Below are positions 11,770-38,814 of a stretch of DNA of 64,000 nt, in pieces. How positions within the stretch are numbered: position 1 is the stretch's first letter; every line of letters starts with the position of its first letter. Source of the stretch: a phage. The stretch is from NCBI GenBank assembly GCA_020619395.1, contig GCA_020619395.1_4860.1; one strand, given 5' to 3'. A program made the position numbers and the translations under genes. The notes beneath the pieces are model-generated. The model was given only the letters and a program-made list of their open reading frames with translations. It was not told where the DNA came from and made no database searches.

Positions 11770-11791
11770 AAATATACTGGAGCAACCTGCA

Positions 11792-15284: not shown

Positions 15285-15812
15285 TTAAACGAATCCGTCC
15301 AGTTCACCGTTGGTGGTGCTCAGGTCAGTTTTAACGATTGGCTGCGTTACAGTATAAACTGCAAGGCTGGCAGGCTGGTATTTAATGTGGCCTTCTTTCA
15401 CCATAACAGTGATGATTTTCTCACCACTGTCGCCGTCCTCGCGTGAAATGGTGAGTTCAGACAATGCAAACGCATCTTCCGTTTTACCGGCGGCAATTAG
15501 ATCTGCGTTGACAAAAGCAAGCACTTCTTCATCGGTATCCCATTCTGCCTGGTCAGCGGTAACTGCTTTCGCACCGATGATGTTCAATGAATCGAGGCGG
15601 GTATAATGCAGCTCTTTCTCGCCAGTAAAGTTAGCGGATTCCGCGGTGGCAGTGATGGTGAGTTTGGAGTTGCGAGTGTCTCCAGAATCTGCTGGTGAAT
15701 AGTCAGCAACAGCGCCGAATGTAACGTCAGCAGAAGTTAACGGACTAGACAGTCCGCTGTTTGCAGCATTAAACAGCGCAACGAGTTGGTCTTTTGCAGA
15801 GATGACTGCCAT
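15285..15812 (-). CDS. Short member of fibre-module family (175 aa)
   Basis: N-terminal module (LVALFNAAN..RNSKLTITA..ELHYTRLDSL) plus C-terminal TNGELDGFV shared with C-type paralogs. Confidence 0.65.
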   Translation of the reverse strand: MAVISAKDQLVALFNAANSGLSSPLTSADVTFGAVADYSPADSGDTRNSKLTITATAESANFTGEKELHYTRLDSLNIIGAKAVTADQAEWDTDEEVLAFVNADLIAAGKTEDAFALSELTISREDGDSGEKIITVMVKEGHIKYQPASLAVYTVTQPIVKTDLSTTNGELDGFV

Positions 15813-15892
15813 GGTTGTTTCCTTATAGTAGGTTTGTGGTGCATACTAAATCGTTCTAAAAACAACATAGTGGGCTTAATATGACAGTAAAG

Positions 15893-15920
15893 TTGGCTGT
15901 TAAACGAGAAATTTTATACC
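15893..15920 (+). promoter_or_regulatory. Possible sigma70-like promoter for lipoprotein gene
   Basis: TTGGCT, 16-nt spacer, TATACC about 15 nt upstream of the RBS. Weak match. Confidence 0.25.
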
Positions 15921-15935
15921 ACTGAAAGGTACTCT

Positions 15936-16427
15936 ATGAAACGTCTATTTATCGTATTCGCGATTATAAACCTGTTGGCCGGTTGTGTTCAGTCGCCAAG
16001 CAACATAGGACAATTTAGCGCCACACCAGTAAAGAATCACGACTTGGTGATTTATACATGCACAGGGACGCAGGAGAAGTTTATAGACTACCGTCCGGTT
16101 CTGGACAATCTACAGATGATGCCGCGGTCAGTAACAGTAATGGATGTGGGTGCAAACTGGGTAGCAACGTGGGACGGTGGCAAACTAGAGTCACCGATGA
16201 TGTTTAAAGATACAATTGGCAAAATCGACGGGAATGTTAACACCACCACAGGTGAGCGTTATTACCGTATTAATAAAACCGTAAACGATAGCCCCACTTA
16301 CTCTTTTTCGGATGTGAACCCGTATACCGGCGAAGGTAAAGGGATGACATTCTTTCGCTGCAGCAGCGGGTTTATCGGTGAAGTTCCTACTCCGATTACG
16401 ATTGTTCCGTTAGAAGAAAATAAATAA
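15936..16427 (+). CDS. Lipoprotein (163 aa)
   Basis: Signal peptide MKRLFIVFAIINLLAGC with lipobox LAGC. Lone plus-strand gene between minus-strand genes, with its own terminator. Confidence 0.7.
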   Translation: MKRLFIVFAIINLLAGCVQSPSNIGQFSATPVKNHDLVIYTCTGTQEKFIDYRPVLDNLQMMPRSVTVMDVGANWVATWDGGKLESPMMFKDTIGKIDGNVNTTTGERYYRINKTVNDSPTYSFSDVNPYTGEGKGMTFFRCSSGFIGEVPTPITIVPLEENK

Positions 16428-16429
16428 TG

Positions 16430-16470
16430 CTTACCCACTCCCGTAAGGGGAGTGGGTAAGGGCTTTATTT
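16430..16470. terminator. Bidirectional terminator
   Basis: 13-bp stem CTTACCCACTCCC/GGGAGTGGGTAAG, loop GTAA, then GGCTTTATTT; A-rich on the other side. Confidence 0.7.
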
Positions 16471-16552
16471 ACCCTCTAAAACGCTCTGTAACGCTCTCTA
16501 AGCGCATTAAACGTATCAAATGATAAATGATATTACTTTTGATTAAAGTGGC

Positions 16553-17068
16553 TTAGATTTTAACTAGCTTGCTCCAATCGATGGGTTGTTGCTTAACCAC
16601 TTTAACGGTACCACGTGTCGGTGACCAGAAGGTGATATCAGGCTGGTTGCGTACGTCAACATGCAACCAGGTAATATCGCACTCGATAAAGTGAATAAAC
16701 GGAAACTCGTTAGGGTTCGCGGCAATATAGTCGTGTACTTTCTGCAACGGAGTATCAAGCATTGTTGCATCAAACGCATTACCGAATTTATGCATACTGC
16801 CTGATTCGGCGTACAGTTTGTTTGCACGAGTTTGCCAATCTCCACCCTTTGGTTTCTCTTGATTAATAAAGAACTGCAGGGTACGCAGACTACGCTGTTG
16901 CTGGGAACTGGTTAAAATCACCATCCGCCCAAAACGATTACGAATCTGTTGGAGCGAGATTAGCAGTAACGGATTAAGGAAACGAATAGCACCTTCACCG
17001 TATTTCGCGATGTACTCCTGCGGCATCAACTCTTTTAACGCGAAGTTGGCAGGATTCGGATGAAACAT
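16553..17068 (-). CDS. Peptidase M15-like (candidate L-Ala-D-Glu / D-Ala-D-Ala peptidase, endolysin-type)
   Basis: SMHKFGNAFD (H-x6-D) and WLHVDV (second His) resemble zinc-ligand motifs of M15/VanY peptidases. AAGGAG RBS. Confidence 0.5.
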   Translation of the reverse strand: MFHPNPANFALKELMPQEYIAKYGEGAIRFLNPLLLISLQQIRNRFGRMVILTSSQQQRSLRTLQFFINQEKPKGGDWQTRANKLYAESGSMHKFGNAFDATMLDTPLQKVHDYIAANPNEFPFIHFIECDITWLHVDVRNQPDITFWSPTRGTVKVVKQQPIDWSKLVKI

Positions 17069-17077
17069 TTTTTCTCC

Positions 17078-17719
17078 TTAAGGGGCAGTCAGGAACGCAC
17101 GTTTGATATTCAAATACTGCACGTTTACCGGTTGCCCATTAGTAATGTCAACACGTTCGTGTTCAGGAATCGCTAACGTACGAGATGTTCTAAAGAACAG
17201 GTAGTTGCGATTATAGGACAACGTCTTTTCTACCGGCCGGCTATAAACCACCTTAGAGTTATCGTCTACATAGGACGGCCAACCAAACTCGTGAACGGCA
17301 TGGTAGAAGGACTTACGAATAAAGGTGTCAACGCCTAATGCCTCCATGATGCGTAAGAACATCAGGTCAGCGAATGTTTTGTCACATGCACGAGATAGAT
17401 TACCTTCGACAGTGTCAGGGTAAAAGCCTACCGATGAACGTTTCTGGTAAAACAAATCATGCACACAAGCGGCAGCGGCCCAAGGCCCATCCGGATGCAG
17501 GATAGGACGTAACGCTTCTGGAATGCTTGCCAGGTCCGTCACAAATCCTCTCGGTACCGTTACCCATAACGGGGTATCCGGATGCACACCTGCTAATGCT
17601 ACCATCGCATCCATTCCGGTCTGTTCACGATAGAGGCTGCGCAACGTAAACTCGAAATGGAAATCATCCGTGAGGATAAACCACGGCTTCTCTAACAACG
17701 TATACTTAAGTGCTTCCAT
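17078..17719 (-). CDS. DUF1353-like protein
   Basis: VPRGFVTDLASIP..AAACVHDLFY matches the DUF1353 signature as recalled. Confidence 0.5.
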   Translation of the reverse strand: MEALKYTLLEKPWFILTDDFHFEFTLRSLYREQTGMDAMVALAGVHPDTPLWVTVPRGFVTDLASIPEALRPILHPDGPWAAAACVHDLFYQKRSSVGFYPDTVEGNLSRACDKTFADLMFLRIMEALGVDTFIRKSFYHAVHEFGWPSYVDDNSKVVYSRPVEKTLSYNRNYLFFRTSRTLAIPEHERVDITNGQPVNVQYLNIKRAFLTAP

Positions 17720-17782
17720 ACTGACCTCACGTCATATAACGCACGAGCATCGTGAGGACCATTAATCCCAGTAAAATGGACA

Positions 17783-17935
17783 TTAAGCCTTTCGGCCAGT
17801 CGTCGTTGTCGTATTGCATGGCTTTACCCTCCGACAGAAGATCGCGCGTAATAGTTTGAAGAACCCAGAATCGTAATACGTTTCCGGAACGGTTTGTACT
17901 TCGGGGAACTTAGGCGGAGTTGGACGGTGGGTCAT
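17783..17935 (-). CDS. Small hypothetical protein (50 aa)
   Basis: ATG with AAGGAG 9 nt upstream; below ORF-track size cutoff. Followed by an 18-codon hydrophobic micro-ORF (17727-17783) overlapping via TAATG. Confidence 0.3.
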   Translation of the reverse strand: MTHRPTPPKFPEVQTVPETYYDSGFFKLLRAIFCRRVKPCNTTTTTGRKA

Positions 17936-18007
17936 TACGTTTTCTCCTTGCGGCAAAAACAAGGGCGCGCCAGATAGCTTTCATTAAGGCAGCAAACCAA
18001 TTCTGTT

Positions 18008-18625
18008 TCATTTGCACATCCCCAACTTAGCCACGTAGTCTGGCATTTCCTGATAGACGCGGCCATACCAGCCGTAAGTAAACTCTTCGTTATCCTCACG
18101 CCCTTCACTGATTTCCGTGTAGTACGCAACCTGATGACAGGTTAAAGCGAACATCAGTCGATTCAGGCCCTCTTCCCCACGGGCTTTGATGAAGCCTTCT
18201 AACGCTGTTAACGTACGTGGCCCGATACCACCATCGGCATCGATATCATCGTATAGTTTACCCTGACGGTTTAATACGTTCAGAATACGTTGCAGGGACT
18301 TGATACAGTTACCGCGTCCTGCGTTGATGCCGAAATCAAACATTCGGTCAGCTAGCAGGACATTCATTTTCATAATCTGGTCTAAACGCATCCGCTGCCA
18401 CCAGAGCTTGTTGTAAATGTCTAACGCGATTTCTAAGCTCAGGTCACGCATATCCCCTTTATAGCCATATTCGCGCGCAGTGAGTTCGGTGACACCACGG
18501 TTCGTTGCTTTGCCCAAATCTTTCGGGTTATTAACGTAACCGGCTTCGATGTTTACTTTGGCACGAATAATGCCCTCTTTACTCCAACGATCGACCACGA
18601 TAACCTCCTGAGTTGATAGGGTCAT
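18008..18625 (-). CDS. GH108-like muramidase with peptidoglycan-binding domain (endolysin or virion lysozyme)
   Basis: EAGYVNNPKDLGKATNRGVT matches the GH108 EGGYVNDPxDxGGxTxxGIT signature; C-terminal DGGIGPRTLTAL region PG-binding-like. Start uncertain: ATG 18625, or GTG 18598 with AGGAGG 5 nt upstream. Confidence 0.6.
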   Translation of the reverse strand: MTLSTQEVIVVDRWSKEGIIRAKVNIEAGYVNNPKDLGKATNRGVTELTAREYGYKGDMRDLSLEIALDIYNKLWWQRMRLDQIMKMNVLLADRMFDFGINAGRGNCIKSLQRILNVLNRQGKLYDDIDADGGIGPRTLTALEGFIKARGEEGLNRLMFALTCHQVAYYTEISEGREDNEEFTYGWYGRVYQEMPDYVAKLGMCK

Positions 18626-18657
18626 AAAAAGAAAGCCTCTTCCCCGTGGGGAAGAGG
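18623..18657 (-). terminator. Hairpin with U-tract after 725-aa gene (leaky terminator or attenuator)
   Basis: CCTCTTCC..GGAAGAGG stem then CTTTCTTTTTAT on minus strand; overlaps the possible lysozyme start. Confidence 0.4.
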
Positions 18658-18703
18658 GCATGGGTTATCTTCAGGCTTTAAACCCGTCAAGTTCCTCGTT
18701 AAA

Positions 18704-20881: not shown

Positions 20882-20895
20882 GGTGACACCTTAGT

Positions 20896-22215
20896 CTATA
20901 GCGGTGGATACCAAGGGACCGGGGCGGTTTTGCTATATGGACTGTAGACCATATAGCCGCCTTTGCTTGGGTCGTAATAGATGAAATAGTTACAGTAATT
21001 CGAGTAAATGCTCGTCATTTGTTTGGATTGGTATCCGTTACGGTATAGTCCCTGGTAAGTAATAGCTGATGTCGTGGTGGTGTAAGCAGTGTGGTACAGT
21101 ACCCGACGCCGGTTAGCAATACTTTCTTGGAACATTTCTTCGGTCGGAAACGCGTGTTGCATCAGCCGTCGAATACTCCCGGTACAGTATCGAGTGCCAT
21201 ACGGGGAACCCGTTAAATCATCCGCAGTTTCAGGCGATTCTGCCCGAGTCAACACGTACTCGTTTTGATACAACGTGACGCTCATCGAATTTGGGCTGGT
21301 TTCCCGGAAACTCATGTAACGCGCATAACGTTCGACGTCCTCTTCCTGCGCCAAATAGGCCACGTTATTTTTCGGACCAAAGTGCAAGAAGAACGGACGG
21401 CGGAGATTACCCATATCCTCAGGTGGCGTCAACTTCACGCAGTAATTGTACTCCCCACGCATATCAGGGTCTAAGCCTGGGTTGTTATTGCGTGTAGCGA
21501 CATACCCATAGAGGTCATACGGGTTATCAGTAGCAGCATTACCGATAGTGAACGGGATGCCCGACCATGCCGACAGCGCCGCGATGAACTGGGTCATGTA
21601 CGAGTTACTGTTTAGTCGCAGCGGGGTACCCATCGGGATATTGATTATCTGTTGGGTGTACATGCTCCAGTCGAGTCGATAGACCGTGCTGTAAACATCC
21701 ATGGGTTCCCAAGCTCCGGTTTCGGTGGTGTGGTACAAGTCGGCAAAGCTGGGCTCTTCACGAATAAAGCTAATAGGAATGTGACCCGTGAATGCGGGGT
21801 TATCCGATTTAATCGCCACCGTCCGATCGCCCGTTGCCACAGTGATCATTGCAAACTGGCTGTCAGGATACGTTAAATCGTCAGCAGTAAGCACCAGCCC
21901 ACAAGCTGCGGAAATCCGGTCGATGATGTCGCGGTAGGACGTCGCCCGATAAGGTACTTTAACCGGTACGCTGACGCCTTTAAAATACTGCGAAAGGTTT
22001 AAGCGGTCGTAGTAGATGTCCATCTTACCGCTGTAACCGCCACCCTGTAATCCGTTTACCACTATACGGCTGTTGCGGCCATCGCGCAAGGCATTGGTTA
22101 AAGGACCTTGTAATAACGCCACGTTGGTTGCGTTGAGTGGTTTCTTGAGCTGCGGGTTATCACGATTAATCTGATCCCAAACCAGCTGCATGACAGGTTT
22201 GTTATAGTTGATCAT
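20896..22215 (-). CDS. Fibre-module family protein (439 aa)
   Basis: N-terminus MINYNKPVMQLVWDQINRDNPQL..RNSRIVVNG..IYYDRLNLSQYF; C-terminal SPYSKTAPVPWYPPL. Confidence 0.65.
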   Translation of the reverse strand: MINYNKPVMQLVWDQINRDNPQLKKPLNATNVALLQGPLTNALRDGRNSRIVVNGLQGGGYSGKMDIYYDRLNLSQYFKGVSVPVKVPYRATSYRDIIDRISAACGLVLTADDLTYPDSQFAMITVATGDRTVAIKSDNPAFTGHIPISFIREEPSFADLYHTTETGAWEPMDVYSTVYRLDWSMYTQQIINIPMGTPLRLNSNSYMTQFIAALSAWSGIPFTIGNAATDNPYDLYGYVATRNNNPGLDPDMRGEYNYCVKLTPPEDMGNLRRPFFLHFGPKNNVAYLAQEEDVERYARYMSFRETSPNSMSVTLYQNEYVLTRAESPETADDLTGSPYGTRYCTGSIRRLMQHAFPTEEMFQESIANRRRVLYHTAYTTTTSAITYQGLYRNGYQSKQMTSIYSNYCNYFIYYDPSKGGYMVYSPYSKTAPVPWYPPL

Positions 22216-22225
22216 TGCAACGTCC

Positions 22226-22262
22226 TAAAAAAAGAAAATAGGCCCTTCAGGGCCTATTTTTA
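22226..22262. terminator. Bidirectional terminator
   Basis: TAGGCCC-TTCA-GGGCCTA hairpin flanked by A-run and TTTTT. Confidence 0.6.
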
Positions 22263-22289
22263 GCTGTTATGGTGAAGTACGCTATCCCT

Positions 22290-22382: not shown

Positions 22383-22393
22383 ATTAGCTCCTG

Positions 22394-23296
22394 TTAGCTA
22401 AGAACCAGTTCGATAACGTGGACTACCGACGCGCTATTGGTCGAAGAGGTGTACGATGGTGTGTCTGGTGAGTTGCTGCGATAGTACCAGGGGGTGGCGT
22501 TGTCATAACCGTTGGCAAACAATGTTGCGCTTGAATCGGTTGGACTACCGCCGGAGCGCGCCGGTAAGTCGCCAAAACGTCTTACGACGCCCGCGTAGCG
22601 GAACAAGCTTGCGAACGTGTTGTGCCACTCGCCATCTTGAAAATAACCACCGCTGCTTAGGTAGGTGCTGTGCCCATAACTGTAGTCTCCGAGTCGAGGC
22701 AAACGTACCACATACTCGTAACCGTCTTTATTAAATGTCCGACGCTGGTTAGTGGTAGCGACGCCCCGTGGCGGGAAACCGTAGTCATCTGTTCCCCAGG
22801 CCAGACCTTGCTGGTATTGTTCGTTCCACGTCGTCCCTAAACGGGTCACCGTGTCAGGAATGAACAGAATGCGTCCTTTGAAAACGAATTTATGGAACAA
22901 TGTTGGAGCTTGGTTCCAGGCATTAAAGCCAATTAAACCATTCAGCTCGGCATGGTTAAGAATAAATTCTTCGTTTGTCAGTGTGCCAAAGTAGCCACGA
23001 TGCCAATCGCCACGAATAAGTTCCTGTGGGCCGGGCCCTGTCATTGGAAAGTCGCCCTGTACAATCGGCAGCCCCATAACCTTTTCAGTGCCCTTTACCG
23101 CCACGATGCGATATTGATACGTTTTATACGCCTCGGTGGTCGTGTCCTCGTACGTCGTTGTGTTACCTGGTAGTGTTACAATAGGTTCCCCCGGTGCTAC
23201 TGGGTTAACACTTTGTCTGGGGTTGTCGTAACGATAGATTTCAATGGAATCTAAAGTCTGACCTGGCTGTTGTTTCCAGTTTAAGATAATCGACAT
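22394..23296 (-). CDS. Fibre-module paralog type A, triad 3 (300 aa)
   Basis: FN3-like N-terminus (TTYEDTTTEAYKTYQYRIVAV) and central GPGPQELIRGDWHRGYFG..ELF..HKFVFKGRILF domain. Confidence 0.7.
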   Translation of the reverse strand: MSIILNWKQQPGQTLDSIEIYRYDNPRQSVNPVAPGEPIVTLPGNTTTYEDTTTEAYKTYQYRIVAVKGTEKVMGLPIVQGDFPMTGPGPQELIRGDWHRGYFGTLTNEEFILNHAELNGLIGFNAWNQAPTLFHKFVFKGRILFIPDTVTRLGTTWNEQYQQGLAWGTDDYGFPPRGVATTNQRRTFNKDGYEYVVRLPRLGDYSYGHSTYLSSGGYFQDGEWHNTFASLFRYAGVVRRFGDLPARSGGSPTDSSATLFANGYDNATPWYYRSNSPDTPSYTSSTNSASVVHVIELVLS

Positions 23297-23299
23297 GTT

Positions 23300-24298
23300 T
23301 TACTCCACTAACTCGATAACGAATGCGTACAAACCGACCTTCTCAGCACTGTCAATTAACGTAACTTGGGAGAGGTTACGTTTCGACGTATTGGTTATGC
23401 TTGAATCGATAGGCGCAGACCCGCGAACCAGAACTAATCCCGATTCAGGATCACGTTCTTGGCACAAGAAACCTTTGCCTTGGTAAGCGCTACCGCTCCC
23501 ATAAATGGACGCTGGACTAATATTAGTCCAGTTAGGGAGCATTTGTTTGTTAGGGATACAATCTCCGAACGGATAAACAAAATCGTTATATTCGCAGCGA
23601 CCATATTCCAAGTCATCATGGTCTGCGTTTCGCAACGATTCATCCAATGTCATTACTGTCGGTTCGTCCCCGTCGGTTAAACCGCGCAGCAATCGCATCC
23701 GATAGGTGTCGCCTTGCCATTCAAACAACCCACTCTGGTCAACACCTGCCAAATCCCCACGTCCGTTATCAGGACCAAATCCATCAACACCGTACACAAG
23801 CCCCGCGTTATAAATGTCATTCCACGAGTAAAGTGTAGAGTTAAATCGTCCGCCGCTGTTCATCATGTAGTAAACTTTACCATGTCGATAAAACTTGTTC
23901 ATGATTAGCGTGCCCGTGCCCGATATCCCTGTTAATGCACGAAAGCCTGCAGGCAACGCGTCATAGGTCATCTGTTCTTCGAACGGCAACTGCCCCAGAA
24001 ACGCCAAGTCGTCAGTATCGGAATAGTTAATCTGGTCGACGCCACCCACACCACGACGGTTTTTAATGACAATGGATTTTTGTGGACTACCTACGGTACG
24101 GCCGTTAACAGTTACTGTTAAAAGATACCAGTAACGGGTGTTAAGAATAACGGTTTCGTCCGTCCATTCCGTTTCGCCATTACTTAAAGTTGCAATAGGG
24201 GCTGGTAATGCGGCTGTATTTATTTTAGCCGTGCCCCGATAAATGTTAACAATTGAACCTGCCGGATTTTCATTTTTCCAGCGTAGTGTGAATGCCAT
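23300..24298 (-). CDS. Fibre-module paralog type B, triad 3 (332 aa)
   Basis: MAFTLRWKNENPAGSIVNIYRG.. N-terminus; AAGGAG RBS; 3-nt gap to A gene. Confidence 0.7.
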   Translation of the reverse strand: MAFTLRWKNENPAGSIVNIYRGTAKINTAALPAPIATLSNGETEWTDETVILNTRYWYLLTVTVNGRTVGSPQKSIVIKNRRGVGGVDQINYSDTDDLAFLGQLPFEEQMTYDALPAGFRALTGISGTGTLIMNKFYRHGKVYYMMNSGGRFNSTLYSWNDIYNAGLVYGVDGFGPDNGRGDLAGVDQSGLFEWQGDTYRMRLLRGLTDGDEPTVMTLDESLRNADHDDLEYGRCEYNDFVYPFGDCIPNKQMLPNWTNISPASIYGSGSAYQGKGFLCQERDPESGLVLVRGSAPIDSSITNTSKRNLSQVTLIDSAEKVGLYAFVIELVE

Positions 24299-24308
24299 CT
24301 GTTACTCC

Positions 24309-25751: not shown

Positions 25752-25762
25752 GAAGTCTCCTG

Positions 25763-26662: not shown

Positions 26663-26664
26663 GA

Positions 26665-27654: not shown

Positions 27655-27666
27655 TGTCGTTACCTC

Positions 27667-29163: not shown

Positions 29164-29176
29164 GGTATTTACTCCA

Positions 29177-30100: not shown

Positions 30101-30109
30101 GACTGCCCC

Positions 30110-31108
30110 TTACTCGACCAGTTCAAAGATAGGGTAGTAGCGCCCTTTCGTGGTGGGTGATAAATAGTTTATACGCTGAATCGTGGATACGGGTGTTCCA
30201 CCGGCATTGTTAAAAATACCACGATGGAGCACACGGTCTTCCGCGGTATCGTGTTCCATACAGAGAACACCACCGCCGAAATACTGTGCCAAGGTTCCCA
30301 AAGTACCTTGCCCCAGATAAGTATAACCGATTGTTGCCCAGTTAGCCCAACGCTGTTTCTTCGGCACCTCGTTAACCATCGTGTAAAGTAAATCGTTATA
30401 CTCACACGGGTTGGTTAGAGAAGCGATTTCATCATGGGTTTTCCCATTATAGTCAGCTACGAAAGGATACGCAGGAGGCTCGCTAGACATCGTCAGGCCG
30501 CGAGGAAGACGCATGATGTACGTATCCCCTTTGTGGACTATCTTAGCGTCTTGTGGAGTGGCCGGTAGCGTTCCATGGCCGTTCTCTGGACCAGCATCGC
30601 CCGTACCATAGACTAAACCAGCTTGATAGAGGGAAGCCCAGTCCACAGGCGTATTCGGGAACTGCGACGTGCTAGATAGCATGTAATAGATCTTCCCGTT
30701 TCGGGTAAATTTATACAACGCCACACGATCGGTTAGTAGGTTAGGGAACATCGCCAAAAATGCAGGTGGCATTTGCGACGGAAGCCACTGTTCGTCGTAA
30801 GGAACCGCACCCATAAACCCTAAACGGTCGTCACCGTTTAGAATAGTCATTGGACCGATCCCACGCTTTATCTCAATGGTGTATTTCTGGCTAGACGATG
30901 CCACTGTTTTACCGTTGGCGGTTACCGTCAGAAGGTAATAATAGGTTGCGCCTGGTGTGGCGGTGGTATCACGCCATTCTGTCTCGCCATTTGAGAGCGT
31001 TGCAATCGGTTCAGGCAAAGCGCTTGGTGTGATATCTTTAACATCACGGTAGATTTTTACTACCGTAGGGATTACGTTTGGATTTTTCCAACGCAAAGTA
31101 AAAGACAT
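30110..31108 (-). CDS. Fibre-module paralog type B, triad 1 (332 aa)
   Basis: MSFTLRWKNPNVIPTVVKIYRD.. homologous to the other B copies. Confidence 0.7.
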   Translation of the reverse strand: MSFTLRWKNPNVIPTVVKIYRDVKDITPSALPEPIATLSNGETEWRDTTATPGATYYYLLTVTANGKTVASSSQKYTIEIKRGIGPMTILNGDDRLGFMGAVPYDEQWLPSQMPPAFLAMFPNLLTDRVALYKFTRNGKIYYMLSSTSQFPNTPVDWASLYQAGLVYGTGDAGPENGHGTLPATPQDAKIVHKGDTYIMRLPRGLTMSSEPPAYPFVADYNGKTHDEIASLTNPCEYNDLLYTMVNEVPKKQRWANWATIGYTYLGQGTLGTLAQYFGGGVLCMEHDTAEDRVLHRGIFNNAGGTPVSTIQRINYLSPTTKGRYYPIFELVE

Positions 31109-31119
31109 AGATGATACCT

Positions 31120-32532
31120 CTACTTAAAGCCGTCCAGTTCACCGTTAAGAGACGTTAACGTTGTCTTGTCAGGGGGCGTATACATTTCAGCGGTAGCCGC
31201 AATAGGTTGGAAGTCGACTGTCTTCGGCAGCATTAAAGCAGGCGGATGCAGTGCGAAACTGTTTTCTGAAGTAACAACTACCGGTTCGAAATCGGTAGTA
31301 TCCGGATTACCGAGCACTAACGGCTTGAGACTAAATGTGTTTTCTGCGGACACGCTGCACGGTTGGAGACTGTAATCTGCCGTACCGTGGATATCTTCTA
31401 AACCCAAGGTAACTGTGGACTTATCCACCAACTCCAGCACCGGGAACCAGTAGTAGTTGCCCGCACTCGATGATTTTTCTAAGTTTGTCCAACTTGCTCC
31501 AGACAACGTCGCCATGCGATGATTGGCGACGTTGGTCTTCAGTGTATCTTTCAATAAACAGAACAGCGTCCAGTAACTGTTAATCGGTTTGTCCCACGTT
31601 CCATTATACAGAAAGTTGAACATCTCAAACTCACTACCTGCTAACTCAGCGGCAGTTGGGGTGCCGCTGACGTATGGGTCTTTCCCGGCACTAGGTAGAC
31701 GAACGCGGAAGTAAAACCTTTTGTTGTCTGCGCCTGTAAAGCTAATGATGCGTCCCTGGTTAACGGGCGTCGCCGCAGGGTATTTACCATTATCGTCTGT
31801 TCCGTAAACGAGTCCGTTTGTATATAACGTATTCCAGGAGATGGAGCTAGCGACAGGACTGATCGGAAGGTAAATAACCCTACCCTGGTAAAAGAACTTG
31901 TACCAACCTTCGGCACCAGAATGTACCGGTGGTAACGCACCGGCCGATATAGTGGCATTAAGAAGTTGAGAGTGTGTAAACAACTCTGCAGTTCTGGTTG
32001 TTCCGAAATAACCCGCGATAGTGTTACCTTGCAGCAACGTTTTAGGGCCAGGTCCAGAATCGGGGTAAATTGCACCACTCGGGACGGTATAACGTATCGT
32101 TAAGCTGCCTGTAAACGCAGGGCAATTGCCTGAGATATTTAATTTCAACGTCTGCGGCGAAACGCTCGGTTTAGGTAAACTTGCGTCAGGTGACTGCAAA
32201 TCAGAAGCAACTAATGTAAGCCCCAATGCGTCGTTTATTGCAGGTAGCGCGTCTCGTACCGTTAAGACTGTATCTTTGATAGCCACAGTCGGCACAAAAT
32301 TAAATAAAGTGGCCAGGTTAATCCGGTCGTAGTACACGGTAACATTACCTTGTACACCTGTCCCTGGATACCCGGTGAAAACAGCTTTGGTGTTACGTTG
32401 GTTTAACGTAACTGAAGTTGGGCCACTGGTTAAAGCAGCGATAGCCGGCGTCAGCTTAACAACTAAATCAGGGTTATCCCGATTGACTTGGTCGTATACA
32501 AGCAGTGCCGACTCCTTCGAGTAAAATAGCAT
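31120..32532 (-). CDS. Fibre-module paralog type C, triad 1 (470 aa)
   Basis: VNRDNPDL..RNTKAVFTGYPGTG..VYYDRINLATLF N-terminal module; C-terminal LNGELDGFK. Confidence 0.7.
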   Translation of the reverse strand: MLFYSKESALLVYDQVNRDNPDLVVKLTPAIAALTSGPTSVTLNQRNTKAVFTGYPGTGVQGNVTVYYDRINLATLFNFVPTVAIKDTVLTVRDALPAINDALGLTLVASDLQSPDASLPKPSVSPQTLKLNISGNCPAFTGSLTIRYTVPSGAIYPDSGPGPKTLLQGNTIAGYFGTTRTAELFTHSQLLNATISAGALPPVHSGAEGWYKFFYQGRVIYLPISPVASSISWNTLYTNGLVYGTDDNGKYPAATPVNQGRIISFTGADNKRFYFRVRLPSAGKDPYVSGTPTAAELAGSEFEMFNFLYNGTWDKPINSYWTLFCLLKDTLKTNVANHRMATLSGASWTNLEKSSSAGNYYWFPVLELVDKSTVTLGLEDIHGTADYSLQPCSVSAENTFSLKPLVLGNPDTTDFEPVVVTSENSFALHPPALMLPKTVDFQPIAATAEMYTPPDKTTLTSLNGELDGFK

Positions 32533-32545
32533 AGGGACTCCGCAT

Positions 32546-32576
32546 CGCCAAAAGAGGGGGGCTCCGAAGAGCCCCT
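32546..32576 (-). terminator. Hairpin terminator between short-paralog genes and triad 1
   Basis: Minus-strand GGGGCTC-TTCG-GAGCCCC followed by CCTCTTTTGG. Confidence 0.45.
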
Positions 32577-32580
32577 ACAC

Positions 32581-33408
32581 TTAGCTGTTATAGTGGTAGT
32601 ACGCCACGCCTTTCACGCCTTCCTCATCGATACCCGTTTGGATAACCACGCGGTCGTACGATTTGTTAGCGAACTGAGCGGTGGATGTCGGCACATCCTG
32701 AACGGTGTTACTGTTCAGTGGCCCCGCGTAGTTCGGAATACCCAGGTCATCCAACACCTTACGCAAACCAGCCCACTGCGGTAGGCCAGAAGCATCTACT
32801 GTCAGTAGGTTTTTATACGCGGTAAAGTCAATACCGTACGTCAACAAATCAATACACTTCTTACCGAGAGACGGTGAAATAGGCTCTTGAATCGCATTCA
32901 AGACATCTGATTTCACCGAAGTGTCTAGTACCGGTAAACCACGGTTATAACGCAACGTCGCAGAACCGATATAAGCCGGAGATGTCGATAGCGCTGCAAT
33001 GGTCTGTGTATTGGTGTAATTTGGGGTATTGGCACCAAACAGTGAGTAGTTTTGGATATCGATTGCGGAGAAGTTTACTCCGTAAGTATCCAAGAGCACC
33101 GAAAAGGCTGAGTGGAGGTTGGGCGCGTCAAACGTGACGAACTGCGCCTGGACAGAAGGACCCCACGGCAATAACCGCGCTAAGTTCACACGGTCGTAGT
33201 AAACGGTGATTGCGTCTCGAAATCCGGAACCCTGAATACCGCGCAAGCGTGCCGACGTATTGCGGTTGTTGGAAGCTGCATTAACGGGAACCTGCGTCAC
33301 TTTCTCCACGTAGCAGTTTGCCGGCGACGCTTTAATAGGTAGGTTTGGGTTATCCCGGTTAATGAGGTCAAAGACCAACTCGTTTGACGGCTTAGCATAG
33401 TTGATCAT
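32581..33408 (-). CDS. Fibre-module family short paralog (275 aa)
   Basis: ATG 33408 (tracked TTG 33411). N-terminal module INRDNPNL..RNTSARLRGIQGSGF..VYYDRVNLARLL; C-terminal YYHYNS. Confidence 0.65.
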   Translation of the reverse strand: MINYAKPSNELVFDLINRDNPNLPIKASPANCYVEKVTQVPVNAASNNRNTSARLRGIQGSGFRDAITVYYDRVNLARLLPWGPSVQAQFVTFDAPNLHSAFSVLLDTYGVNFSAIDIQNYSLFGANTPNYTNTQTIAALSTSPAYIGSATLRYNRGLPVLDTSVKSDVLNAIQEPISPSLGKKCIDLLTYGIDFTAYKNLLTVDASGLPQWAGLRKVLDDLGIPNYAGPLNSNTVQDVPTSTAQFANKSYDRVVIQTGIDEEGVKGVAYYHYNS

Positions 33409-33411
33409 CAA

Positions 33412-34299
33412 TTATACCTCGCTTGGATCGTCCAGATCGTTGAACTGGAGATACAACGTTCCGACGATGGTGGTACAGGTAACAGGCAGTTTCAACACCA
33501 GCGCATACTTGTACTTCGCGTTTGTCGGCATTGCAACAGGGTCATTCAGACCAACGCTGATAACCTCCGCGCCCGCCAAACCGTAGGAAGCGGAGGTGGT
33601 CGCTACCCATGCAGTACCCGTGATATCTTTCAGCAGGTTAACCATATCCGTTAACGGCTGTCCGGACAGAATACCCGGCACGTATGCCAGCAACTCATCA
33701 CGGTATTTGGTGAAGTTGTACGGGTAGGAATAAACCTCTGCAATGACCGCAGTAACGGTTTCGGAACCCATCTGACCGTTCGGGTATTTCAGACCGGTCA
33801 GGACGTTAGTGGTGACCGCAGAGACTAACGACTCATCGCCTTTCACGACTTTAAATGTCGCCTGTCCAACCCAACCGATAGACTCAGGATGTGCAACAAC
33901 ACGCACAGTTCCTTCGGTCTTATCACCGTTCCATTCGATATCTGCGTCCTGCAGGTCAGCTTCTTCCAGAACAAAACCGTAACGTTGGTTCAGTCCAGGA
34001 ATGGCCGCATACAAGGTTTCGTTGGATGGGCCGATCGCCAACGTGTCACCAATCAGCACTAACAAGTCTTCGATTTTCATGCGGTTGTAGAAGACATTTT
34101 TCTTACCCGACCAGGTAGAGCCCGTTACCCCATCTGCCGTAATTTTAATTTGCGTGTTACGGTTAGTCAGCGTTTCCTTCTCCGTACCACGGATGTCCTT
34201 TGGCGAGGACCAGATGATGTCAGTCATCTTAACAGCAAGCGAGTTCTGTGCGTTCACTGCTGCCAACAGGACGTCTTTAGAAGGTTGATAAATAGCCAT
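33412..34299 (-). CDS. Fibre-module family short paralog (295 aa)
   Basis: N-terminal module (NRNTQIKITADGVTG..FYNRMKIEDLL); C-terminus LYLQFNDLDDPSEV. Confidence 0.65.
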   Translation of the reverse strand: MAIYQPSKDVLLAAVNAQNSLAVKMTDIIWSSPKDIRGTEKETLTNRNTQIKITADGVTGSTWSGKKNVFYNRMKIEDLLVLIGDTLAIGPSNETLYAAIPGLNQRYGFVLEEADLQDADIEWNGDKTEGTVRVVAHPESIGWVGQATFKVVKGDESLVSAVTTNVLTGLKYPNGQMGSETVTAVIAEVYSYPYNFTKYRDELLAYVPGILSGQPLTDMVNLLKDITGTAWVATTSASYGLAGAEVISVGLNDPVAMPTNAKYKYALVLKLPVTCTTIVGTLYLQFNDLDDPSEV

Positions 34300-34309
34300 T
34301 CGCTAATTC

Positions 34310-35149
34310 CTAGTTGTTGTAGTGCAACATACACTCGCCGATTACTTTCGGGTCGTTCTGAATGCCGGTAATCAGCAATACGTTATCGTACGCTTTATTG
34401 GCGGTCGCCAACTCACTCGTTTTGTAGCGGGTAATTGTGCAGTTCGTCGGATCAAACGACGGTACCCCACGTGCGACCAATGTGGCCATCAGATTGGACG
34501 TGTAACCCAAATCAAAGTTACTTCCTACGTCCATTCGCCCGTTCTTAAACGAGGCCATAACCTGCACTTCATCAGTAAAGTCTTCCCCGTACGTCAAGAA
34601 GCCCATGTATTTCTTACCAGTGCTTGCTGCTGCAGGGTGGTTCAAAGCCGACAAGATGTCGTTTACCACGAGGTCTTCGAGACTATTCTTACCCCGGATA
34701 GACATAAAGGTGATGCTGCCAGTGTATTGGATACAGCTAGCGTTAATGCGCATCGTGTTGTTTACGTTCAGATAAACGTATTGTTCTGGGATATCGTCTG
34801 CAACCAGGTTTAATCCATAACGACCGTTCAGGTTCTGCGCAAACGCAGTACGTTTCGACTCCACGTTCAACCAACCGTAGGCATTCGGTGCAGTTACCTG
34901 AGGTGTCATGTTCTTAAATAAGTCGTTCAGCGACAAGCGCTTATAACGGAACGTCTGAGGACCGATATAGCCACGACCTTGACGACCACGAATGATAATC
35001 TCAGTATTGGCACCGCTTGCTGTCGGTGTGATTGCTTTCGGCGTACCGATGATAGCATTGTCTAAACCCATCGGTAGAACAGCATCCGGGTTTTCGGCAT
35101 TAATCGCATCGTACAGATATTGTCGCTGAGACAGACTATATAAAGCCAT
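34310..35149 (-). CDS. Fibre-module family short paralog (279 aa)
   Basis: ATG 35149 (MALYSLSQ..) with GAGGAGG 5 nt upstream; tracked 35167 start would translate the RBS. C-terminal MLHYNN. Confidence 0.65.
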   Translation of the reverse strand: MALYSLSQRQYLYDAINAENPDAVLPMGLDNAIIGTPKAITPTASGANTEIIIRGRQGRGYIGPQTFRYKRLSLNDLFKNMTPQVTAPNAYGWLNVESKRTAFAQNLNGRYGLNLVADDIPEQYVYLNVNNTMRINASCIQYTGSITFMSIRGKNSLEDLVVNDILSALNHPAAASTGKKYMGFLTYGEDFTDEVQVMASFKNGRMDVGSNFDLGYTSNLMATLVARGVPSFDPTNCTITRYKTSELATANKAYDNVLLITGIQNDPKVIGECMLHYNN

Positions 35150-35167
35150 AATAGCCTCCTCGGCCAA

Positions 35168-35206
35168 AAAAGAAAGGAGTAGCCAGGAGGAGGATTTCCT
35201 CCTCCC
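35168..35206 (-). terminator. Hairpin terminator-like element
   Basis: GGAGGAGG-ATTT-CCTCCTCC stem-loop; U-run begins 9 nt downstream on minus strand. Confidence 0.35.
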
Positions 35207-35218
35207 AGCGAGGCCTAA

Positions 35219-36130
35219 TTAGGCATTAAAGTGCAGGTACATGACGCCCTGGAAGTTGGTGCACAGAGTGTCATCCAGCTGCAGCAGCAGAACCTGGTTG
35301 TAAGCAGTGTTTGCACCTTCAACCGGTTTCTTAGGATCGTCGCCTGAAGCAGTGCCATCGTCAGTAGTAGAACCAACGTACAACACGTTAGCACCTTTCA
35401 GGTTATAATCCGCAGGCTCATCAGATGCAACCCACAGTTCCGGCACAACTTTATTCAGCTCAACCGGGAATGCAGAGTCGCCAGCGATAACACCTTTCGC
35501 CTGTACTTTCAGGAATGCTGCGATTGCTGTGCAGTCTACACCGTAAGAGTAGATGTAGCCCTGACCCTTCGCTTCGCTTGGACCATCTGGGTAAACCAGG
35601 CCGTCGAGCTTGGTTTGTGTTACCACCAGACTCAGACGTTCACCAACCTGAGGCTTAGCACCGATTTTAACCGGGATGCTGCCCAGATATGCGTAGCAGT
35701 CTTCTTTGAAGGTAATGACATGGTCAACCGGTGCTGGGTCCGGATCGTTCGGGTTAGTCAGCGGCGGGTTGGTATTTTCCGGAATAGCCGCCGGAACGAT
35801 ATCGTCTTCGGTCAGCTTCAATCCATATTGGTTGTTCAGGGTCGTCAGCAGGTCTGTGGTGGTTTTCGGCAGTTTAACGTCGAGGTATGCTGTTACGTTA
35901 CGGAACAGCGCACCGCCTTCCAGGCGATTATAAGTCACGTCCTGAGTACCGATGTACCCGGAGTTCTTTTTCGCAGTCAGGGTCATGCTGGTATTGCGAT
36001 CGGCACCTCCATCGATAATAGGGGTCGGTGTGCCGAGCGTTATTTTAGAAAGTTCCAGTTCTGCGTCTGGGTTTTTCTCATTAATAAAATCCAGAACCAG
36101 CTGATCGGACGTTTTGTTTAAAGGTTTCAT
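35219..36130 (-). CDS. Fibre-module family short paralog (303 aa)
   Basis: N-terminal module (INEKNPDAEL..DRNTSMTLTAKKNSGYIG..TYNRLEGGALF); C-terminal MYLHFNA. Confidence 0.65.
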   Translation of the reverse strand: MKPLNKTSDQLVLDFINEKNPDAELELSKITLGTPTPIIDGGADRNTSMTLTAKKNSGYIGTQDVTYNRLEGGALFRNVTAYLDVKLPKTTTDLLTTLNNQYGLKLTEDDIVPAAIPENTNPPLTNPNDPDPAPVDHVITFKEDCYAYLGSIPVKIGAKPQVGERLSLVVTQTKLDGLVYPDGPSEAKGQGYIYSYGVDCTAIAAFLKVQAKGVIAGDSAFPVELNKVVPELWVASDEPADYNLKGANVLYVGSTTDDGTASGDDPKKPVEGANTAYNQVLLLQLDDTLCTNFQGVMYLHFNA

Positions 36131-36151
36131 TCTTACTTCCTTTACTCAGGA

Positions 36152-36997
36152 TTAATCAGGGTCGTTGTAGTGCAAATACAAACGCCCGCCAAAATTCAGA
36201 CAGTACAACGACAGCTCCACAATCAGCACGTTGTCGACTGCTGGGTTGGTTGGTAATTCCGCTTTGTTACGCCCGTTATAGACGACGACGGCTTCACGAA
36301 GGTTAAAGTCGATTGGGTTACGGTACGTTGTCCAGTTATCACCGGTGACCGTTTTGAGAATCTGTGCCAGACGTTCTGCGGTTATCGCAGCACCTAGTCG
36401 TTGAAATTCCTCCGCGAAATTATCAAAGCGCCAGGGATACGAATAAACTGCACCTTGACCGACCTTGATGTTAAAATACGGATACTCGTAAGGTGTTACT
36501 GTTAAGGGTTCGAAGTTTGCAGGAAGCAACGCATCGCCTGGTAACAGCTGTACCTGTTGTTGCCCTATCCAACCTAAAGAAGTGGGCGTGGCAATCAGAT
36601 CCACACGCCATGTCTTCCTGTCGATTTCGGTATTCACCACATCTGCAGGTTTAAGGCTGAGACCGTAATACTGGTTAATTAACCCGACCACGTCATGCAT
36701 CTGGTAAACGGCATCGAGACGTGCAGGAACACGTAGAGGTTGAATCCCGTCTGGGTCGGTAAACATGTCTGCGAAGTCAACACGATCGTAATACACGGTA
36801 GTGGCACCGATAGCATTAGCGGTGGCCAATGCCTGAATGCGCACCATCGCGTTATGACCATTGGCTTTTGCCAGGTCTTCGTCAGACGTCGGAATCGCAG
36901 GGACACCGAAAACCACATCTTCGACTTTTAAATCGAGATTGTTTTCGACGTTAACCTCCGCGATAATAATCTTTTCAGCAGTGGCTAAAAGTGGCAT
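36152..36997 (-). CDS. Fibre-module family short paralog (281 aa)
   Basis: Divergent N-terminal module ..TTVYYDRVDFADMF; C-terminal LYLHYNDPD. Confidence 0.6.
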   Translation of the reverse strand: MPLLATAEKIIIAEVNVENNLDLKVEDVVFGVPAIPTSDEDLAKANGHNAMVRIQALATANAIGATTVYYDRVDFADMFTDPDGIQPLRVPARLDAVYQMHDVVGLINQYYGLSLKPADVVNTEIDRKTWRVDLIATPTSLGWIGQQQVQLLPGDALLPANFEPLTVTPYEYPYFNIKVGQGAVYSYPWRFDNFAEEFQRLGAAITAERLAQILKTVTGDNWTTYRNPIDFNLREAVVVYNGRNKAELPTNPAVDNVLIVELSLYCLNFGGRLYLHYNDPD

Positions 36998-37007
36998 GTC
37001 AAAATCC

Positions 37008-37850
37008 TTATATCGGGAGATAGTGAAGGATGAGATTACCGGCGTAGTTGCTGTCCGCAGCTAGCTTGATAATCGCCACACGCTGATAATCGGGGTTGTA
37101 ACTATCGTTCGGTGTGACTGAAGTTATCCCCATAAATCGCGCACCTTGGAGTGCAATTTGTTCAGGTTGCGCAGTCGCCCCCGTCACATATGCAAACTTT
37201 AATGGCACCACTTCGTTCAGCAATTCAACATCCGCCGCGGTGATTGCGCGGTTGTAAGCCCAATCGGTAGTGAACTGTTTTTGCAGTTCAGTCCAATCGT
37301 AACCATACGCCACATACTCAGCCTGTGGTTTACTAGCAACCACGAACGGCGCGATAATTGCGCTGAGGTCAACATCCGTCACCACATCCGCCAAGTTCGG
37401 GAAGAACTTCGCAAAGCGTAAACGGAAACCACCTTGCCAGGCCAAGCAACCAGGCTTAATAGTCACATCGATTAACCAGCTTTCTCCCAAATCTTTTACT
37501 GACTGGTCAACGATATCGTCGGCAACTAAAGACAAGCCGTATTTCGCATTCAGAAACGGCAACAACTCAGAGAGTTTATTTACCGGGTCGGCAACGACTA
37601 CCGGTATTACGTTCCTGAACAGAATTTCCATTTCGATACGGTCGTATTCGAGCGTAACGTTGCCTTTGTAGCCCTTGCCGTTCAACCCGTATAAGAGCAC
37701 ACGCGTATTCCGGTCAGCGCCAGGCGTTTGGACAGACTCAGGGAAGCCAGTTGCAACCTGCTCCCATGTGAGTGGATTGGCCGTTAATCCGTTCTGTCGG
37801 TTAATAGCATCTAACAACATCTCTTTCGAGGGCTTATCGTAAATAGACAC
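37008..37850 (-). CDS. Fibre-module family short paralog (280 aa)
   Basis: GTG start with AGGAGG 8 nt upstream. INRQNGL..DRNTRVLLYGLNGKGYKG..EYDRIEMEILF; C-terminal LILHYLPI. Confidence 0.65.
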   Translation of the reverse strand: MSIYDKPSKEMLLDAINRQNGLTANPLTWEQVATGFPESVQTPGADRNTRVLLYGLNGKGYKGNVTLEYDRIEMEILFRNVIPVVVADPVNKLSELLPFLNAKYGLSLVADDIVDQSVKDLGESWLIDVTIKPGCLAWQGGFRLRFAKFFPNLADVVTDVDLSAIIAPFVVASKPQAEYVAYGYDWTELQKQFTTDWAYNRAITAADVELLNEVVPLKFAYVTGATAQPEQIALQGARFMGITSVTPNDSYNPDYQRVAIIKLAADSNYAGNLILHYLPI

Positions 37851-37860
37851 CTATACCCTC

Positions 37861-38658
37861 CTAGTTGTTAAAGTGTAGGTTGAGGCTGCCCTGGAAGTTC
37901 GTACATTTATCGGTCAGTTGCACTGACACGACTTTCGCGAACGCCGTATTTGCTCCCGGCAAGTCTGCAGGTACGCCGTCGAATACGACAGTGGCACCAC
38001 GCAGGTTATACGGGGATGGGGTATCTTCAGCTACCCAAATCTCAGGAACACATTTGTTGAGTTCGATTGCCAACGCCGTGTCATCTACCTCGATACCGAC
38101 CGCTAAGAGGCTCAGGAAACGAGAGATGTGGCTACAATCGATGTCACGCGAATAGATATACGCCTGACCCAACTGGATGTCCTGGTGATCCGGGTACAGA
38201 AGACCGCTCAACTCTGTATTGGTTACTACTTCTGCCAGAGGTGTAGCAGGTTTCAGCTCGATGACCGCTTGACTTCGCCACTCGTGGGAAGTTTCAACAG
38301 CAACGACTGTGTGCGTCTGTCCATCAATGGGGTTATCTTCGATATCCTCAGGTAAGATAGACAGATTAAAACGCTCGTTAATCGCCGCGAGTAAGTCGTG
38401 CGTGGTTTGCACGTCCTCGTCTCCAAAGGCAACATCGCCTTTAAGGTAGTCCTCTAATGGACGACGATGGTAGTCCACAATCACTTGCGTACCTTCATCA
38501 CCGCGCATCTTCGAGGTAAGGACTACCTCCGAATCACGACCGTCTACTGACACAACCTCCGGCAGTCCGATATCAACATCGTCAAAGGTAAGCGGTGGGC
38601 TTATCTTATTCTCTTCGTTGATGAGTTTTAGCAGATTCTGTTTTGAAGTAAAAGACAT
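37861..38658 (-). CDS. Fibre-module family short paralog, first gene of array (265 aa)
   Basis: ATG 38658 preceded by palindrome TTAACTCGAGTTAA and no clear SD; C-terminal LNLHFNN. Confidence 0.6.
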   Translation of the reverse strand: MSFTSKQNLLKLINEENKISPPLTFDDVDIGLPEVVSVDGRDSEVVLTSKMRGDEGTQVIVDYHRRPLEDYLKGDVAFGDEDVQTTHDLLAAINERFNLSILPEDIEDNPIDGQTHTVVAVETSHEWRSQAVIELKPATPLAEVVTNTELSGLLYPDHQDIQLGQAYIYSRDIDCSHISRFLSLLAVGIEVDDTALAIELNKCVPEIWVAEDTPSPYNLRGATVVFDGVPADLPGANTAFAKVVSVQLTDKCTNFQGSLNLHFNN

Positions 38659-38760
38659 CGCGTTAACTCGAGTTAAGGGATTATTGAGGTCGTAAGATTT
38701 TTAGACCCCCTGCCAGCATATTAAAAGCGTAGTGCGTACCAGAATCTGAACAAGAGCAAA

Positions 38761-38810: not shown

Positions 38811-38814
38811 TTCT

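Follow-up and report, generated by a model that had tools for sequence, protein, structure and literature searches.

How does a phage use a large set of proteins that share one N-terminal domain and differ in what lies behind it? This question is raised by a 64,000-nucleotide stretch of phage DNA (GenBank assembly GCA_020619395.1, contig GCA_020619395.1_4860.1; hereafter the window), in which 13 intact minus-strand genes between positions 15285 and 38658 begin with a common module. The gene products are virion proteins of the Pfam family DUF7941, known as Paralog family B in the Salmonella jumbo phage SPN3US, and are probably the building blocks of filaments, flexible and heteropolymeric, on the particle's outer surface. 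In the biology of chimallivirus virions, what this family does counts among the open questions. If its members form a host-capturing cloud of filaments, the cloud would influence how fast jumbo phages under consideration for therapy and biocontrol adsorb, and which hosts they can infect.

A preliminary description of this DNA, made from the letters alone, had proposed that a module of about 80 aa is shared by at least 18 genes, and had named as carriers a 175-aa protein, proteins of 725 and 439 aa, three proteins of 480, 498 and 470 aa (the C proteins) and seven short paralogs of 265-303 aa. The N-termini of these 13 proteins were found to align with the described motif (MAFFT). A leave-one-out hidden Markov model (HMM) built from the other 12 finds every one of the 13, with E values of 3.5e-29 to 1.9e-6 in a 2000-sequence database, and a profile made from the seven short paralogs alone recovers the other six (E 1.5e-27 to 5.4e-8). 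Judged by these profiles, the shared module is real, far beyond chance. Its length and number require correction. The homologous stretch covers about 145-160 aa, corresponding to DUF7941 positions 1 to ~165; past the described motif it continues with a conserved helix (L..LN..YGL.L...D) and then three strands. The window holds 13 intact genes and a truncated one, the latter being the single further weak match (45035-45349) in a six-frame scan of the whole window. The same HMM finds 16 genes in the complete SPN3US genome, namely gp83, gp122, gp138-145, gp148, gp151, gp154, gp155 (two copies), gp160 and gp237. Six genes of about 300-332 aa that are interleaved with the others in the window lack the module (HMM E at least 29, hhalign probability 0.2%).

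The module belongs to a known Pfam family. When the proteins were scanned, 11 of the 13 matched DUF7941 (PF25613; 276 model positions) with 43-293 bits, above the gathering threshold of 27 bits, and the other two, both short paralogs, were recognised by the short-paralog profile at E~1e-100. Coverage of the 276-position model is complete in the short paralogs (E down to 4e-87), whereas in the longer proteins it is limited to positions 1 to ~165. By profile comparison, then, the module is the N-terminal domain of DUF7941. PHROGs assigns the proteins to families of the class 'head and packaging / virion structural protein'. Against solved structures, the short-paralog profile gave one match, phiKZ gp127 in PDB 9XQD (E=1e-22), a protein located on the outer baseplate, and the predicted N-domain fold matches residues 1-150 of the same protein. 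The domain is not enzymatic. Known tailspike and tail-fibre adaptor domains have no similarity to the module, whose Pfam, PHROG and PDB matches are DUF7941 and gp127 only.

An HMM search for the module in 1.84 billion representative proteins returned 3430 clusters, of which 1774 had E<=1e-10. The architecture figures refer to the best 150 of the 3430 clusters. Among these, lengths range from about 150 to 2032 aa, and in 142 the module begins no later than residue 25. It is present once in 80 proteins, twice in 50 and three times in 17, with up to 12 copies in single proteins; altogether 70 of the 150 carry 2-12 tandem copies. The long relatives tested are fusions to ConA-like lectin (Laminin_G_3), gp38, BNR/sialidase, arabinofuranosidase, immunoglobulin (Ig), SPRY and propeller domains. 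In the window, too, the common N-domain is followed by varied distal parts: a gp38-type domain, putative C-type-lectin-like domains and the C-terminal domain of DUF7941 itself. The claim of a common N-terminus with varied distal domains is thus supported. All tblastn matches listed are phages of ~197-322 kb with hosts in Erwinia, Salmonella, Serratia, Klebsiella, Cronobacter, Burkholderia and Xanthomonas, and among these matches the restriction of DUF7941 to phiKZ-like jumbo phages (Chimalliviridae) holds.

The locus itself is closely related to that of SPN3US. In megablast searches, SPN3US-like Salmonella jumbo phages, including SPLA5c, MET_P1_082_240, the SPFM series and SPN3US, match positions 30000-39000 over 100% of the query with 98.5-98.9% identity (98.7% for SPN3US); their genus, Seoulvirus, belongs to Chimalliviridae. 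Running from 37861-38658 to 20896-22215, the minus-strand genes correspond one to one with gp138 to gp154 in the SPN3US table, and the gene order and sizes of the cluster are the same. Gene product (gp) numbers follow the original SPN3US numbering (JN641803), and window coordinates equal those of locus L001 (NC_027402, reverse complement) plus 13000. The window genes are thus direct orthologues of SPN3US Paralog family B (gp83, gp138-154, gp160, gp237; Thomas et al. 2016, Ali et al. 2017), which had already been described as perhaps the largest group of paralogs within any one phage genome. The family received its name from Ali et al. (2017), who gave it 20 members with function not known, and its proteins belong to the set of 25 paralogous proteins in the SPN3US virion of ~83 proteins (Ali et al. 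2017). The idea of a previously uncharacterised family is accordingly superseded by Paralog family B (2016/2017) and by DUF7941, and published mass spectrometry places the proteins in virions. The family, its proteomic location in the virion and a mechanistic hypothesis have all been published; the observation is genuine but already known.

In SPN3US virions gp141 and gp160 are the two most abundant members, with spectral counts per mass (SC/M) of 9.39 and 9.46, compared with 8.84 for the 264-copy tail sheath, and more than 300 copies per capsid were estimated (Ali et al. 2017). A classical branched tail-fibre apparatus, in which each paralog is a separate receptor-binding protein whose N-module docks on one baseplate adaptor as in CBA120, G7C and RaK2, would account for the shared N-terminus with variable C-terminus, for the gp38 domain in one member and for the presence of phiKZ gp127 on the baseplate. 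With about 300 copies per virion, however, the two most abundant members far outnumber the sites that a baseplate offers, and seven members have no distal domain beyond DUF7941. The tandem arrays and the formation of filaments described below indicate polymerisation, the SPN3US proteins fractionate with heads, and similarity to known tailspike adaptor domains is absent. A branched apparatus of this kind is therefore very improbable. The anchor-plus-adhesin proposal of the preliminary description survives in its overall shape, and the baseplate homologue gp127 agrees with it; its simple picture of branching tail adhesins does not fit with proteins that accompany tailless heads.

Filament subunits are suggested by the relationship to phage Goslar. 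A 2026 preprint (10.64898/2026.04.21.720040) independently 'identified' DUF7941 as a chimallivirus-specific family, and reported that purified Goslar gp22 forms filaments in vitro, as seen by negative stain. The authors predict head-to-tail docking, with the linker and C-domain of one protomer placed onto the N-domain of the next. DUF7941 fusions to carbohydrate-binding, hydrolase and leucine-rich-repeat (LRR) domains were described, more than 2500 copies per Goslar virion were estimated, and a micron-scale 'fiber cloud' for host recognition was proposed at the peripheral baseplate (10.64898/2026.04.21.720040). It was found here that the seven short paralogs align with Goslar gp22 over the full length (hhalign probability 99.2%, E=6.6e-20, 265 aligned columns), so that its organisation of N-domain, linker and C-domain is present in all seven. 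In neither these paralogs nor the 175-aa protein was a distal binding domain beyond DUF7941 found by Pfam or predicted fold.

The 175-aa protein (15285-15812, minus strand) is the orthologue of gp160, to which it is 96.6% identical, and consists of an N-module and the C-terminal peptide KTDLSTTNGELDGFV, with no C-terminal domain (PF25613 E=4e-11; leave-one-out E=6.2e-7). The Pfam DUF7941 and short-paralog profiles align its first ~100 aa only, whereas with hhalign, or with the N-module profile made from the window, almost the entire protein is matched; the hhalign probability against the short paralogs is 96.8%. Its relationship to Goslar gp23 is one of weak homology (69%, E=4.4e-5, hhalign). 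A homologue search with a 160-aa N-module profile returned almost only proteins of ~175 aa. The AlphaFold2 (AF2) model has a predicted local distance difference test score (pLDDT) of 92.9.

Among 39 gp160-like proteins, conservation is highest in the segment KTDLSTTNGELDGF, which stands at the very C-terminus of the 175-aa protein and of the three 470-498-aa C proteins. In hhalign it falls on the linker motif T.LdGL.YP that the full-length paralogs carry. Close to the C-terminus of Goslar gp23 stands ...ADGFV, and the linker of Goslar gp22 contains NLGNLTYVD, while metagenomic relatives carry a similar L.GF.YP element between tandem N-domains. The equivalence of linker motif and C-terminal peptide is drawn from hhalign, from the coverage of PHROG 2935 and from inspection of the tandem proteins. 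In C-protein orthologues, residues 1-80 (0.56) and the last 18 residues (0.55) are the best conserved, compared with 0.35-0.42 elsewhere. This conservation pattern would fit a donor peptide and an acceptor domain.

[quoted passage not shown] By HMM the N-modules occupy residues 4-156 and 179-307, and PF25613 matches in two stretches (E=5.2e-23). Residues ~358-553 match PF05268 (GP38) with E=5.7e-18 and 66 bits against a cutoff of 25. This domain aligns with gp38 of phage S16 (6F45_D) and with 9v85_A, and the motifs GRGG.G, GGGGG and GG.GG.PLG are kept. As the protein has no donor motif, it could cap a chain. In the SPN3US papers gp155 is a head protein that stands outside the Paralog family B list.

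From these features, a model of assembly can be proposed. The N-domain of ~150 aa would be the assembly module, which either anchors to the particle or receives the preceding subunit. The short conserved motif directly after it, L-x-G-(L/F)-x-Y-P in full-length members or KTDLSTTNGELDGF at the C-terminus of the 175-aa and 470-498-aa proteins, would act as the donor element that engages the N-domain of the next subunit, and subunits would in consequence chain head-to-tail. The abundant small members of the 175-aa and 303-aa types may be chain extenders, the 470-498-aa proteins may insert a C-type-lectin-like bead, and the 725-aa protein, with two N-domains, a gp38-type adhesin and no donor motif, may close the chain as its tip. 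Together, the subunits would form a multivalent and multi-specific net through which glycans or proteins of the host surface are first contacted.

The location of such filaments is where the filament proposal is weakest. Two independent tailless mutants of SPN3US, 64_112(am27) and 255(am107), yield DNA-filled heads in which, after CsCl purification, every member of family B was detected, with normalised levels that were equal or higher (PMC5105663, PMC10052503). Work of the Weintraub group in 2023 with a clean tail-tube amber mutant found that the family stays with purified heads, gp237 alone being moved to the tail. The phiKZ and Goslar data place the same family at the baseplate, and the Goslar preprint neither mentions SPN3US nor cites its head-fraction data. 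The two bodies of literature thus conflict, and the anchoring site is the main weakness of the proposal. Head- or neck-anchored fibres or decoration (Hoc-type or head fibres), attached to the capsid shell or the collar and displaying lectin, Fn3 and gp38 domains, would differ from the filament reading in the anchoring site only. Besides the head fractions, such decoration is favoured by the SC/M values of gp160 and gp141, which lie near that of the 264-copy sheath and near the hexamer number of a T=27 capsid, 260 (10(T-1), our own arithmetic), and by family member gp83, which is encoded beside the portal gene. It has to be set against the phiKZ gp127 seen in baseplate density, and against the chance that sticky filaments co-purify with heads. 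Goslar virions, moreover, show no ordered density on the high-resolution capsid despite more than 2500 copies, which makes an ordered one-per-hexamer decoration unlikely. Head anchoring of this kind is conceivable, and we rate it as doubtful.

The head fraction has also given rise to the suggestion that the proteins are internal. In Table 1 of PMC5694885, gp141, gp143 and gp160 are marked 'Head ejection?', and packaging with the DNA, followed by injection, was at first suggested for these three. Their high abundance resembles that of the internal proteins gp53 and gp54. The family is absent, however, from the proteins for which processing by the prohead protease was reported, and the family's gp38 adhesin, putative C-type-lectin-like and Fn3 domains are typical of extracellular binding. 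A homologue lies on the outside of the phiKZ baseplate, and the long filaments of the Goslar homologue are hard to reconcile with passage through a tail tube. An ejected internal protein is accordingly a highly improbable explanation.

The external heteropolymeric filaments remain the reading that we prefer. The head co-purification (if the cloud is purely baseplate-anchored), the ejection label and the conflict of locations count against it, as do three computational results. The model of the 175-aa protein had no significant match in the PDB by Foldseek, 9XQD included. An 18-column HMM of the linker motif missed the C-terminal NGELDGF peptide on its own. The terminal motif is confident in the 175-aa model (pLDDT 84-89) but disordered in the 470-aa model. 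A more specific version for SPN3US-type phages would have combinatorial heteropolymer filaments anchored mainly at the head or neck, not the baseplate, and joined through a universal ~14-residue C-terminal or linker peptide (KTDLSTTNGELDGF or L-x-G-F-x-Y-P) docking on the N-domain of the following subunit, with lectin-like beads inside the chain and the 725-aa tip at its end. This version is speculative and, on balance, unlikely. If true, it would amount to a new way of building fibres on the virion surface, and would reconcile the SPN3US data with those on phiKZ and Goslar.

The region is laid out in the order of seven full-length paralogs, three tandem C-A-B cassettes, the 439-aa and 725-aa genes, a lysis-type island and the 175-aa gene. 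All coding genes of the paralog series described in this and the next two paragraphs are on the minus strand. The gp138 orthologue (265 aa, 37861-38658) matches PF25613 over residues 2-265 (E=7.5e-68; leave-one-out E=1e-8), and its N-module, the first ~150 aa, is encoded by 38209-38658. The gp139 orthologue (280 aa, 37008-37850; PF25613 E=6.6e-71, leave-one-out E=8.6e-20) starts with GTG. RefSeq SPN3US gp139 (L001 24008-24820) starts 30 nt downstream of the GTG at window position 37850; since the N-module alignment starts at the GTG (residue 1), the RefSeq protein is probably 10 residues too short. These are followed by the gp140 orthologue (281 aa, 36152-36997; profile E=8.6e-100, leave-one-out E=7.6e-10) and the gp141 orthologue (303 aa, 35219-36130; PF25613 E=6.8e-85), which is the first sequence of the short-paralog profile. 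The gp142 orthologue (279 aa, 34310-35149; profile E=3.9e-102, leave-one-out E=2.7e-16) likely starts at the ATG at 35149, the mechanical open reading frame (ORF) beginning at a TTG at 35167. The series ends with the orthologues of gp143 (295 aa, 33412-34299; profile E=5.8e-101, leave-one-out E=4.9e-12) and gp144 (275 aa, 32581-33408; PF25613 E=4e-87, leave-one-out E=4.4e-20).

Positions 22394-32532 contain three tandem copies of a three-gene cassette (C, A, B), with 30-47% identity between cassettes, and the C-A-B cassettes are an old triplication. The C proteins share a layout of N-module, putative C-type-lectin-like domain and tail. In the 470-aa C protein (gp145 orthologue, 31120-32532), which ends in NGELDGFK, these parts are residues 1-150, ~150-370 and 378-470; in its AF2 model, made from a 34-sequence alignment (mean pLDDT 77), the N-domain and the central domain are confident and the tail is disordered. 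The 498-aa C protein (gp148 orthologue, 27667-29163; PF25613 E=4.6e-30, leave-one-out E=3.5e-29) ends in NGELDGFQ, and the 480-aa C protein (gp151 orthologue, 24309-25751; PF25613 E=4.6e-22, leave-one-out E=3.9e-23) in NGELNGF. The A proteins are those of 332 aa (gp146 orthologue, 30110-31108; N-module HMM E=220), 329 aa (gp149 orthologue, 26665-27654) and 332 aa (gp152 orthologue, 23300-24298). The B proteins are those of 307 aa (gp147 orthologue, 29177-30100), ~299 aa (gp150 orthologue, 25763-26662, also given as 25763-26698) and 300 aa (gp153 orthologue, 22394-23296). None of these six has the N-module. The A and B proteins open with an Fn3-like domain (3mpc_A, E=1.1e-4; also Fn3 modules of 5g56 and 4u49), which precedes a putative lectin-like domain, as in the gp146 and gp147 orthologues. 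This central domain is common to the A, B and C proteins (BLASTP E down to about 1e-19 to 1e-20). Because the A and B genes lack the N-module and share their central domain with the C proteins, the region is best described as seven paralogs, three C-A-B cassettes and the 439-aa and 725-aa genes.

The 439-aa protein (gp154 orthologue, 20896-22215; PF25613 E=1.5e-26) has DUF7941 over residues ~1-287 and a C-terminal domain, covered by phrog_1037 (1-287) and phrog_6409 (312-436). Its residues 334-438 match 614-720 of the 725-aa protein (BLASTP). Along with the putative C-type-lectin-like central domain and the C-terminal NGELDGF peptide, this C-terminal domain of the 439- and 725-aa proteins is a further module shared within the set. 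Several assemblies among the SPFM5-15 records (LR5359xx) carry scrambled or chimeric ORFs in the paralog cluster (P0065-P0071 and P0096-P0100), with gp141- and gp145-like segments in the wrong order; these are probably assembly errors from paralogous repeats.

The fourteenth N-module gene (45035-45349, minus strand) holds the first 69 codons of SPN3US gp122 (BLASTP, 68/69 identical). Intact SPN3US gp122 is a DUF7941 N-domain protein of 177 aa (PF25613 E=8e-18). Compared with SPN3US, the segment 44000-46500 has a deletion of 2,920 bp, with a ~21-bp overlap (microhomology) at the junction at 45106-45126. Lost are 108 codons at the end of gp122, the whole of gp123 and ~735 codons at the start of gp124; what stays of gp124 is its C-terminal end, a 270-aa ORF (44208-45020). 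A foreign replacement cassette at 44208-45020 was considered and rejected, as these are the last 270 codons of SPN3US gp124, a remnant of the deletion. Across 50,697 phage records, none matched the stretch over the junction as one collinear piece; all matched in two separate places. In SPN3US mass spectrometry, gp123 and gp124 are virion proteins without head assignment.

Between the 725-aa and 175-aa genes lies the lysis-type island (15936-18661), which encodes an endolysin with GH108 and PG_binding_3 domains (18008-18661), a DUF1353 protein (17078-17719), a protein with a weak, sub-threshold match to Peptidase_M15 (16553-17068) and, on the plus strand, an ORF whose signal resembles that of a lipoprotein (LAGC; 15936-16427). 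The Goslar neighbourhood is alike, where the DUF7941 genes gp22 and gp23 adjoin gp24, which encodes a peptidoglycan-domain protein. Further away, two adjacent radical-SAM proteins of 316 and 442 aa, the latter with a Cys-rich C-terminus, are encoded at 11756-14027 (plus strand), upstream of the gene for a DUF4376 protein (14532-15203). At a distance of 7 kb from the DUF7941 cluster, 15-8521 (plus strand) contains a pair of very large ORFs (1075 and 1742 aa) for which Pfam gave no match; by position only they appear to be SPN3US gp169/gp168 of the baseplate/fibre 'Paralog family C'. A 586-aa AAA+ ATPase (Pfam AAA, AAA_2) is encoded at 47558-49318 (minus strand); in Salmonella phage MET_P1_082_240 it bears the annotation HslU. 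A gene of this size is missing from the SPN3US annotation at the corresponding position, which suggests, as read from annotations, an insertion or deletion between close relatives.

The window adds no new family; it gives testable details, namely the candidate donor peptide, a gp38-tipped member and putative lectin-like beads. New here are the gp38-type domain in the 725-aa member, the match between C-terminal peptide and linker, the tandem arrays and lectin-type fusions in metagenomic relatives, the conflict of head and baseplate locations, and the link to Goslar. These additions are leads for specialists, not a discovery.

Compared with the known systems, the closest is Paralog family B of SPN3US itself. 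The published family rests on PSI-BLAST linkage and thereby groups proteins that carry the N-module together with the six Fn3/lectin-like ones that do not. It leaves out gp155, in which two N-modules were found here, and lists gp122 as a 'candidate' only, which is now confirmed in SPN3US and truncated in the window. The DUF7941 proteins of Goslar (gp22, gp23 and eight others) are similar in many respects: gp22 is a full-length homologue of the seven short paralogs, and gp23 has the architecture of the 175-aa protein, an N-domain and a tail with no C-domain. In both phages the gp22-type and gp23-type proteins are the most abundant members, and in both some members carry binding or hydrolase domains. 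Goslar has 10 members, however, compared with 16 N-domain genes in SPN3US-type phages, and its distal domains are carbohydrate-binding module (CBM), glycoside hydrolase and LRR domains, whereas those of the window are gp38-type, putative C-type-lectin-like and Fn3 domains.

In phiKZ the counterparts are gp127 (PDB 9XQD) and gp126; the sequence-profile match and the agreement with the predicted N-domain fold are those of gp127. That phage has two or three members only, gp127 occurs once per baseplate 'star lobe' (six lobes), and adhesin fusions are not known. The gp38 tip adhesin of T2, T6 and S16 (PF05268; PDB 6F45) shares its glycine-rich motifs with the adhesin domain of the 725-aa protein. 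It is a free protein on the tip of the gp37 fibre in those phages, whereas in the 725-aa protein it is an internal part, with two DUF7941 N-domains before it and one more domain after it. CBA120 TSP1-4, G7C gp63.1/gp66 and RaK2 follow the same logic of a conserved N-terminal attachment with exchangeable distal parts. Their adaptors have no sequence or fold similarity to the N-module, and the copy numbers and tandem arrays of the present family point to a polymer in place of one-to-one docking.

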